The position numbers were made by a program, and so were the translations under genes. Below are positions 17,893 to 18,552 of a stretch of DNA of 64,000 bases, in pieces; position 1 is the first letter of the stretch, and the number at the start of each line of letters is the position of its first letter. The notes below the pieces were generated by a model, which did no database searches, had not been told where the DNA came from, and was given only the letters and a program-made list of their open reading frames with translations. This DNA comes from Escherichia coli. Lineage in GTDB: Bacteria > Pseudomonadota > Gammaproteobacteria > Enterobacterales > Enterobacteriaceae. The DNA is taken from NCBI RefSeq assembly GCF_003790525.1, contig NZ_CP033635.1, one strand, 5' to 3'.

Positions 17893-18552
17893 TCATGCGG
17901 TCATCCAGTTTTTTAGAATATTCGCCACCACGGGAGCGAAAGGTGCCAGATAACCGTCGACGGGGGTGAGTAATTCGTCGATAACCGCTTGCAGCAGGTC
18001 GTCATCCTCAAGCCCCTCTGAAGGGTCAATGCCATTAGCCCACAGAAGGCTGTCGGAAAGCTGCTTACGTTTTTCAATCAATGCCCGATTATTACGTTCA
18101 CTATCGCCAAGGTTGAGTACCTTAATCGCATCGATAGCTCTCGGCGTCGTCCCTTCAATTCGACCACTGATCTTGAAGATAAACTCGGTTTCACATTCCG
18201 GCATAAGCGGCGTTAACAGCAATGGCTGGTTCTTATGCGAGTCGTCACACTGGCCTTTTGTTTTGCAGCTTGCAACGATATTCGTGAATTCCAGACTGCG
18301 AGCAGGAGCTAAATCCCTGGCTTCGACATGTTCATTAACGGTATCGCGGTTTGTACCTGTCACGCGATCGCAGCAATAAGCACAGAGATAAAATTGCTCC
18401 TGAGCGCACTGCTGGCTGAGATCGCCAACGATATCCCATTTTTTTTGCGCATAAAGTTCCTGAAACCACTGATTGGCATTTTTATCCCGTGGTTTTGCTC
18501 TCACCCACTGTTGCAAACTGGCCGGCGGTTGCCCTTTAGTTATTTCGCGCAT
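17893..18552 (-). CDS. HNH-motif endonuclease-like protein, candidate Septu PtuB-type effector
   Basis: 219-aa ORF with Cys pair C57/C60-C61, N73-E74-H75, then C96/C102 and H106 (Cys pair - N..H - Cys pair - H, as in HNH zinc nucleases); start overlaps upstream ATPase gene by 17 nt; absent from this position in K-12 as recalled. Confidence 0.75.
   Translation of the reverse strand: MREITKGQPPASLQQWVRAKPRDKNANQWFQELYAQKKWDIVGDLSQQCAQEQFYLCAYCCDRVTGTNRDTVNEHVEARDLAPARSLEFTNIVASCKTKGQCDDSHKNQPLLLTPLMPECETEFIFKISGRIEGTTPRAIDAIKVLNLGDSERNNRALIEKRKQLSDSLLWANGIDPSEGLEDDDLLQAVIDELLTPVDGYLAPFAPVVANILKNWMTA

Follow-up and report, generated by a model that had tools for sequence, protein, structure and literature searches.

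The open reading frame at 17893..18552 (minus strand, stop codon included) of the window, a 64,000-nucleotide stretch of Escherichia coli contig NZ_CP033635.1, very probably is ptuB, the gene for the HNH-nuclease subunit of a stand-alone Septu type I system formed with an overlapping ptuA in an islet between smrB and a YfcO-type adhesin gene. The sequence features that define type I Septu are all found here, namely a PtuA ATPase, a partner homologous to PtuB, and a ptuA gene directly upstream in a locus that lacks a reverse transcriptase and a retron noncoding RNA. This PtuB is already known: it belongs to a textbook type I Septu, and for a copy 99.5% identical to it the phenotype, the effects of mutations, and the cellular target have been published. 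By analogy with that near-identical system, Septu EcB88, the pair would confer phage resistance that requires both active sites, that of the ATPase and that of the HNH nuclease. A PtuB-type HNH nuclease effector had been proposed in an earlier note on this DNA, and that proposal is borne out by a full-length match to the PADLOC PtuB profile (PDLC00344; 5e-95, residues 1-218) and by identity to the Septu EcB88 PtuB at 218 of 219 residues.

Sequence, conservation, and predicted fold of PtuB

The ptuB gene runs from an ATG at 18552 to a TGA at 17893-17895 and encodes 219 amino acids, with cysteines at positions 49, 57, 60, 61, 96, 102, and 120 and histidines at positions 75 and 106. The residues from which the earlier note had assembled an HNH arrangement (C57, C60, C61, N73-E74-H75, C96, C102, and H106) each occupy the assigned place in the translation. 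Its description of the last ~100 residues as acidic likewise holds, with 17 Asp and Glu against 10 Lys and Arg, a pI of 4.4, and a net charge of about -7 over residues 120-219.

Homologue searches with PtuB returned 832 sequences by word-indexed search and 633 cluster representatives by exhaustive HMMER, and we aligned 42 full-length members that span 25-72% identity. Ten columns are invariant in all 42 (Q53, C57, C60, H75, N91, C96, C102, P115, G130, and R162), and K6, E52, Y59, S95, C120, and E121 are conserved at 90% or more. Since C57/C60, C96/C102, and H75 do not vary among the 42 homologues, they are under strict constraint, and on the evidence of these columns the motif pattern is not due to chance. 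The proposed HNH motif therefore stands in its cysteines and in H75 but not in N73 or H106, which are unconserved: position 73 is Asn in 25 of the 42 homologues and Ile in 16, and position 106 is Lys in 21, His in 13, Arg in 5, and Gln in 3. As judged from the alignment, it is N91, not N73, that supplies the Asn of the H-N-H motif, and H106 falls at a basic position that varies within the family. C61 is kept in 34 of the 42. The column of E74 holds Glu or Asp in 39 homologues and E121 is present in 41; with the third motif position at H106 variable, E74 and E121 are candidates for the metal ligand.

Pfam-A contains no family that matches the 219-residue protein, with HNH (PF01844) and its relatives included, even at E ≤ 10. 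We do not count this result against an HNH assignment because family-specific profiles, a profile search of PDB sequences, and the fold all agree. The two best NCBIfam matches are NF041761 (retron Ec78 effector HNH endonuclease PtuB, an equivalog model), at 93.3 bits below its curated cutoff of 150, and TIGR02646 (retron system putative HNH endonuclease, a subfamily model), at 42.3 bits below its cutoff of 52.15 (E = 7e-11, residues 42-139). The TIGR02646 label is one that source databases give to several PtuB homologues at 54-72% identity. When PDB sequences were searched with PtuB as a single sequence, the solved PtuB chains were recovered only at E-values of 0.1-0.2, and a match to a VCP-like ATPase at 0.045 was rejected as spurious. 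We replaced that search with a profile built from the 42-member alignment, which matched the PtuB chain 8ee7_C (7.4e-22), retron PtuB chains (about 1e-18), and, at 1e-5 to 1e-4, HNH domains of the Cas9 type together with a group II intron maturase. The search against HNH families that the earlier note had suggested thus succeeds with the NCBIfam and PADLOC profiles and with the family profile run against PDB sequences, and gives no match to Pfam HNH.

We modeled PtuB with AlphaFold2 from the same family alignment (mean pLDDT, 96.9; pTM, 0.92). In the model, N-terminal helices are followed by a beta-beta-alpha element (strands 71-75 and 92-96, helix 102-106), then by a small region of beta structure and by three helices in the C-terminal part (156-172, 184-194, and 206-218). 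The earlier note had named the joint absence of an HNH profile match and of this beta-beta-alpha fold as grounds for giving up the HNH assignment; PtuB and HNH profiles do match, and the fold is present in the model. A Foldseek search of the PDB placed PtuB chains in all nine of the best positions, drawn from Septu (8eea_G) and from the complexes of retron Ec78/Eco7 and of a further type I-A retron (9n69/9n6b), and the HNH domains of Cas9, GVE2, McrA, and ZRANB3 are also among the structural matches. In the model, as in the HNH superfamily, a beta hairpin is followed by a helix, with the catalytic H75 ending the first strand and N91 preceding the second, and the invariant C57, C60, C96, and C102, which align with the zinc ligands of retron-Eco7 PtuB, are predicted to form a four-cysteine zinc site. 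Taken together, conservation, model, and homology place a putative zinc-finger-framed beta-beta-alpha-metal core at codons 57-106 (18235..18384, minus strand), with C57, C60, C96, and C102 as zinc ligands, H75 as the catalytic residue, N91 as the motif Asn, and H106 at the variable basic position. PtuB differs from superfamily members such as the Cas9 HNH domain, phage GVE2 HNH, and EcoKMcrA in its extra N-terminal helices and its C-terminal docking domain; it also differs in its third motif position, where family members have Lys, His, Arg, or Gln and no His or Asn is conserved, and in having no Pfam HNH match.

The HNH fold might also be read as that of a homing endonuclease, a McrA-like restriction enzyme, a colicin-type toxin, or some other free-standing enzyme that has nothing to do with the ATPase. 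Weak structural similarity to such enzymes exists, with comparison figures of 6.1 for phage GVE2 HNH, 5.1 for McrA and for the ZRANB3 HNH domain, and 3.9 for T4 endonuclease VII, but we disfavor this explanation and give it almost no weight. The C-terminal domain (codons 153-219; 17896..18096, minus strand) is acidic and contains the three C-terminal helices, and it would correspond to the PtuA-docking domain of solved PtuAB structures, in keeping with the suggestion of the earlier note that this region contacts the ATPase.

The partner ATPase and the two-gene islet

The gene directly upstream of ptuB, where the earlier note had placed an ATPase, is ptuA (18536..19894, minus strand), which encodes a 452-residue ABC/SMC-type ATPase and whose 3' end overlaps the start of ptuB by 17 nt (18536..18552, minus strand). 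This overlap suggests that the two genes are translationally coupled. PtuA is recognized by PADLOC (PDLC00271; 1.8e-168, residues 2-450) and contains the Pfam domains AAA_21, AAA_23, SMC_N, and AAA_15. Its Walker A motif, GNNGAGKT, lies at G37-T44 (19763-19786) and includes K43, and its Walker B motif, IVLIDE, lies at I312-E317 (18944-18961) and includes D316 and E317. Among PDB sequences, PtuA matches retron PtuA at 5e-63 and Septu PtuA (8ee4_A) at 3.5e-32.

Some of these matches could be taken to mean that ptuA and ptuB are the effector module of a type I-A retron (a type II Septu of the kind found in Ec78/Eco7 and Ec83/Eco4), restrained by a complex of reverse transcriptase and msDNA. The best NCBIfam names are indeed the retron Ec78 models for both PtuB and PtuA, and the best PDB sequence matches of PtuA are retron PtuA chains. 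Both NCBIfam scores, however, fall below the equivalog cutoffs (PtuB, 93 against 150; PtuA, 352 against 500), and for PtuB a score of this kind fits a stand-alone Septu protein rather than a retron PtuB. PtuA also lacks the N-terminal extension of ~65-80 residues that characterizes retron PtuA, the alignments beginning at residue 67 of the retron chains. No reverse transcriptase ORF lies beside ptuAB, whose immediate neighbors are smrB on one side and the fimbrial adhesin gene on the other, and an Rfam scan of 14000-24000 at E ≤ 1 returned no family and no retron RNA. Finally, a published clone of ptuAB with 300-bp flanks provides defense by itself (PMC13096335). A retron effector module is refuted at this locus by the lack of a reverse transcriptase ORF and of an Rfam match, and we regard it as exceedingly improbable.

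The stand-alone Septu pair is flanked by smrB (19980-20531, minus strand) and by the convergent YfcO-type adhesin gene (16967-17851), which closes a chaperone-usher fimbrial operon of the yfc type. We defined the islet boundaries by comparison with STE15, which has an empty site, and UTI89, which carries a relic; these genomes were used because K-12 yfcO is too diverged, only smrB aligning (88%). The islet measures about 2.1 kb, since homology to the empty site stops at 17855 and restarts at the smrB stop codon at 19980, and it contains only ptuA and ptuB. The spacer between smrB and the adhesin gene in empty sites is 70 bp in K-12 and 111 bp in STE15. The G+C content of the islet is 45-50%, compared with 52-58% further out, and we found no mobility genes or convincing flanking repeats of the ptuAB islet. 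An exact 12-nt direct repeat, TAACCGTCGACG, occurs in the 3' end of ptuB (17951-17962) and in the smrB-ptuA spacer (19936-19947), but it probably arose by chance because its copies lie off the islet and relic boundaries.

The spacer copy of the repeat overlaps a promoter-like site. Within the 85-nt smrB-ptuA spacer, a consensus scan detected a sigma-70-like match, CTGACA-18-TAAGAT (19926..19955, minus strand; 9/12), which is a candidate native promoter, the count of such sites being not above shuffled expectation. The Septu EcB88 clone with 300-bp flanks is described as expressed from its own native promoter (PMC13096335). At the other end of the islet, RNA folding predicts a stable hairpin without a U-tract at 17862..17888 (-16.4 kcal/mol; z = -3.6), in the stretch that separates the stop codon of ptuB from that of the convergent adhesin gene. 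Hairpins are found at the equivalent position in STE15 and UTI89, with a different stem sequence in each.

The segment 17800-20000 is matched at 100% in several genomes, and the window is identical to E. coli SMS-3-5 from about 600 to 49904. The 452 positions at which the window differs from SMS-3-5 are all found in its first 1000 bases, with 1001-49904 identical, and argW, a tRNA-Arg(CCU) gene, lies at 636-710 on the minus strand. Because argW is a known integration hot spot, the island next to it may be a different one in this strain. For core genes of E. coli, the two that flank the islet show unusual divergence, smrB being only 88% identical to K-12 in its 3' part. A blastn comparison of the adhesin gene (16967-17851) with K-12 yfcO gave no alignment, and most genomes match a 17300-20500 query at 80-95%, largely through smrB.

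Septu EcB88 and the substrate of PtuAB

Septu EcB88 consists of PtuA WP_000981116.1 and PtuB WP_016243072.1 from E. coli JBBDAGI-19-0041 (Chihara et al., Nat Commun 2026; PMC13096335), with the PtuB sequence given in Supplementary Data 8 of that paper. The single difference between the two PtuB proteins is conservative, V198 here being I198 there. In PtuA, compared up to its last 53 residues, 395 of 399 residues are identical, and there are at least four substitutions (T220A, I227L, Y356C, and N366D). Gene order, overlap, and a site immediately downstream of smrB are all as in the window, and the cloned fragment starts inside smrB, from which we conclude that Septu EcB88 comes from the same locus. 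It protects against Demerecviridae (T5-like phages) and T4 and partially against T6, with growth and phage yield as in abortive infection (PMC13096335). Its defense is abolished by PtuA K43A or D316A and by PtuB H75A or N91A (PMC13096335), and all four of these essential residues are present in the window proteins. Wu et al. (bioRxiv 10.1101/2022.08.21.504612) mutated a Septu I system at PtuA K43, D316/E317, and H321 and PtuB K6 and H75, numbered as in the window proteins, and reported that both proteins are needed for synergy with Tmn.

On infection of cells carrying Septu EcB88, intact tRNA-Tyr is lost, and sequencing of tRNA fragments located the cut at C48/A49 in the variable loop (PMC13096335). 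The system is overcome by overexpression of tRNA-Tyr or by SegB-driven amplification of a phage tRNA-Tyr gene, phage T6 escaping by amplifying its own copy, and a tail-sheath candidate was excluded as the trigger (PMC13096335).

Two solved systems bear on how the window proteins might work. The PtuB of retron-Eco7 (Ec78; PDB 9KJX, 9NNB, 9L7P, and 9VH1), a type I-A retron or type II Septu, is of similar size at 216 amino acids, and its CCCC zinc finger (C43/C46/C78/C90) and catalytic H57 correspond to C57/C60/C96/C102 and H75 of the window PtuB. In that protein the four cysteines bind zinc and their mutation abolishes defense, H57 is also required, and the C-terminal domain of PtuB contacts that of PtuA (PMC12673091); one group failed to reconstitute the nuclease activity of retron-Eco7 PtuAB in vitro (PMC12640716). 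The PtuB of the ATCC 25922 Septu (PDB 8EE4/8EE7/8EEA; Li et al., NSMB 2024), in contrast, has 243 amino acids, is ~21% identical to the window PtuB, and lacks the four zinc-binding cysteines, reading LCCYS...ASAL in chain 8ee7_C, whereas the window protein has all four. As Li et al. are cited in other papers, what is reported for this system is DNA nicking, not cleavage of tRNA-Tyr. The stoichiometry of the complex is 6:2 in the ATCC 25922 system and 4:2 in retron-Eco7. The four-cysteine zinc finger may be linked to substrate choice, since the window PtuB and retron-Eco7 PtuB, both from systems that are reported to target tRNA-Tyr, have the cysteines and ATCC 25922 PtuB does not, a correlation that comprises only three data points.

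We hypothesize, by analogy with these systems, that the CCCC zinc finger (C57/C60/C96/C102) would frame a beta-beta-alpha-metal active site made up of E74-H75 and N91, that the acidic C-terminal domain (153-219) would dock PtuB onto PtuA, and that nucleotide-bound PtuA would restrain the nuclease until infection releases it, possibly through a fall in ATP. Papers that cite the original work state that PtuAB nuclease activity is reportedly inhibited by ATP, and that a drop in ATP has been proposed as the activating signal. [quoted passage not shown]

More specifically, the zinc-finger PtuB clade, in which the third position is Lys, His, or Arg, could be a tRNA-specific HNH ribonuclease that itself recognizes and cuts the long variable arm of tRNA-Tyr, with PtuA sensing infection directly, a proposal that we hold tentatively and rate as somewhat less likely than not. 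Under such direct RNA cleavage, a stand-alone PtuA without a retron sensor might detect, for example, nucleotide depletion or a phage factor. The literature contains no report of direct tRNA cleavage by purified PtuAB, and published AlphaFold 3 models do not place the tRNA variable loop in the active site (PMC12673091).

An unlikely alternative is that the same PtuAB complex has DNA as its relevant substrate, nicking or degrading that of phage or host, with tRNA-Tyr cleavage being either secondary or the work of a different enzyme, one activated by PtuAB. This would be in line with the DNA nicking of the ATCC 25922 system, as described in citing papers, and with the fact that the nearest structural relatives outside PtuB are DNA-cutting HNH domains; Azam et al. 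also consider it not clear whether PtuAB cuts tRNA directly or indirectly. However, the infection-dependent C48/A49 cut was mapped in a system whose PtuB is the 218/219-identical one, tRNA-Tyr overexpression restored plating of T6, and escape phages amplified tRNA-Tyr (PMC13096335). The distribution of the zinc cysteines, common to the window and tRNA-Tyr-targeting retron-Eco7 proteins and missing from ATCC 25922 PtuB, points away from DNA as well.

Distribution, relics, and annotation

The whole of ptuB is present in 183 of 5426 complete E. coli genomes (~3%). In ~475 further genomes of the 5426 (~9%), among them UTI89, LF82, and ATCC 11775, only the last 225 bp persist, as an unannotated stretch at this locus that has the adhesin gene on one side and smrB on the other, and these genomes lack ptuA and the 5' part of ptuB. 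The relic of UTI89 (NZ_CP062985.1) occupies ~800-1030 of the locus examined and corresponds to 17884-18117 of the window, from which it differs at 8 nucleotides, 6 of the differences being nonsynonymous. Such a sequence suggests that the UTI89 remnant is the decaying relic of a once-intact Septu. The Septu haplotype may have been acquired by recombination along with diverged flanking DNA.

Outside E. coli, Gluconobacter cerinus and Chrysiogenes arsenatis carry an overlapping pair of a 453-455-residue ATPase and PtuB in unrelated contexts and without a reverse transcriptase. The two genes overlap by 14 nt in Gluconobacter and by 17 nt in Chrysiogenes, and the Gluconobacter pair adjoins resolvase and integrase genes. 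As a Septu type I system, the ptuA-ptuB pair forms a mobile cassette of two genes.

RefSeq gives PtuB the name "hypothetical protein" for many genomes, uses "HNH endonuclease family protein" for others, and calls PtuA an "AAA family ATPase." Scans that rely on Pfam and NCBIfam will miss this PtuB clade because Pfam returns nothing and NCBIfam scores fall below the cutoffs. The practical value of the locus is one of annotation, and what it means for E. coli is that a stand-alone Septu targeting tRNA-Tyr occupies a fixed site in the chromosome.
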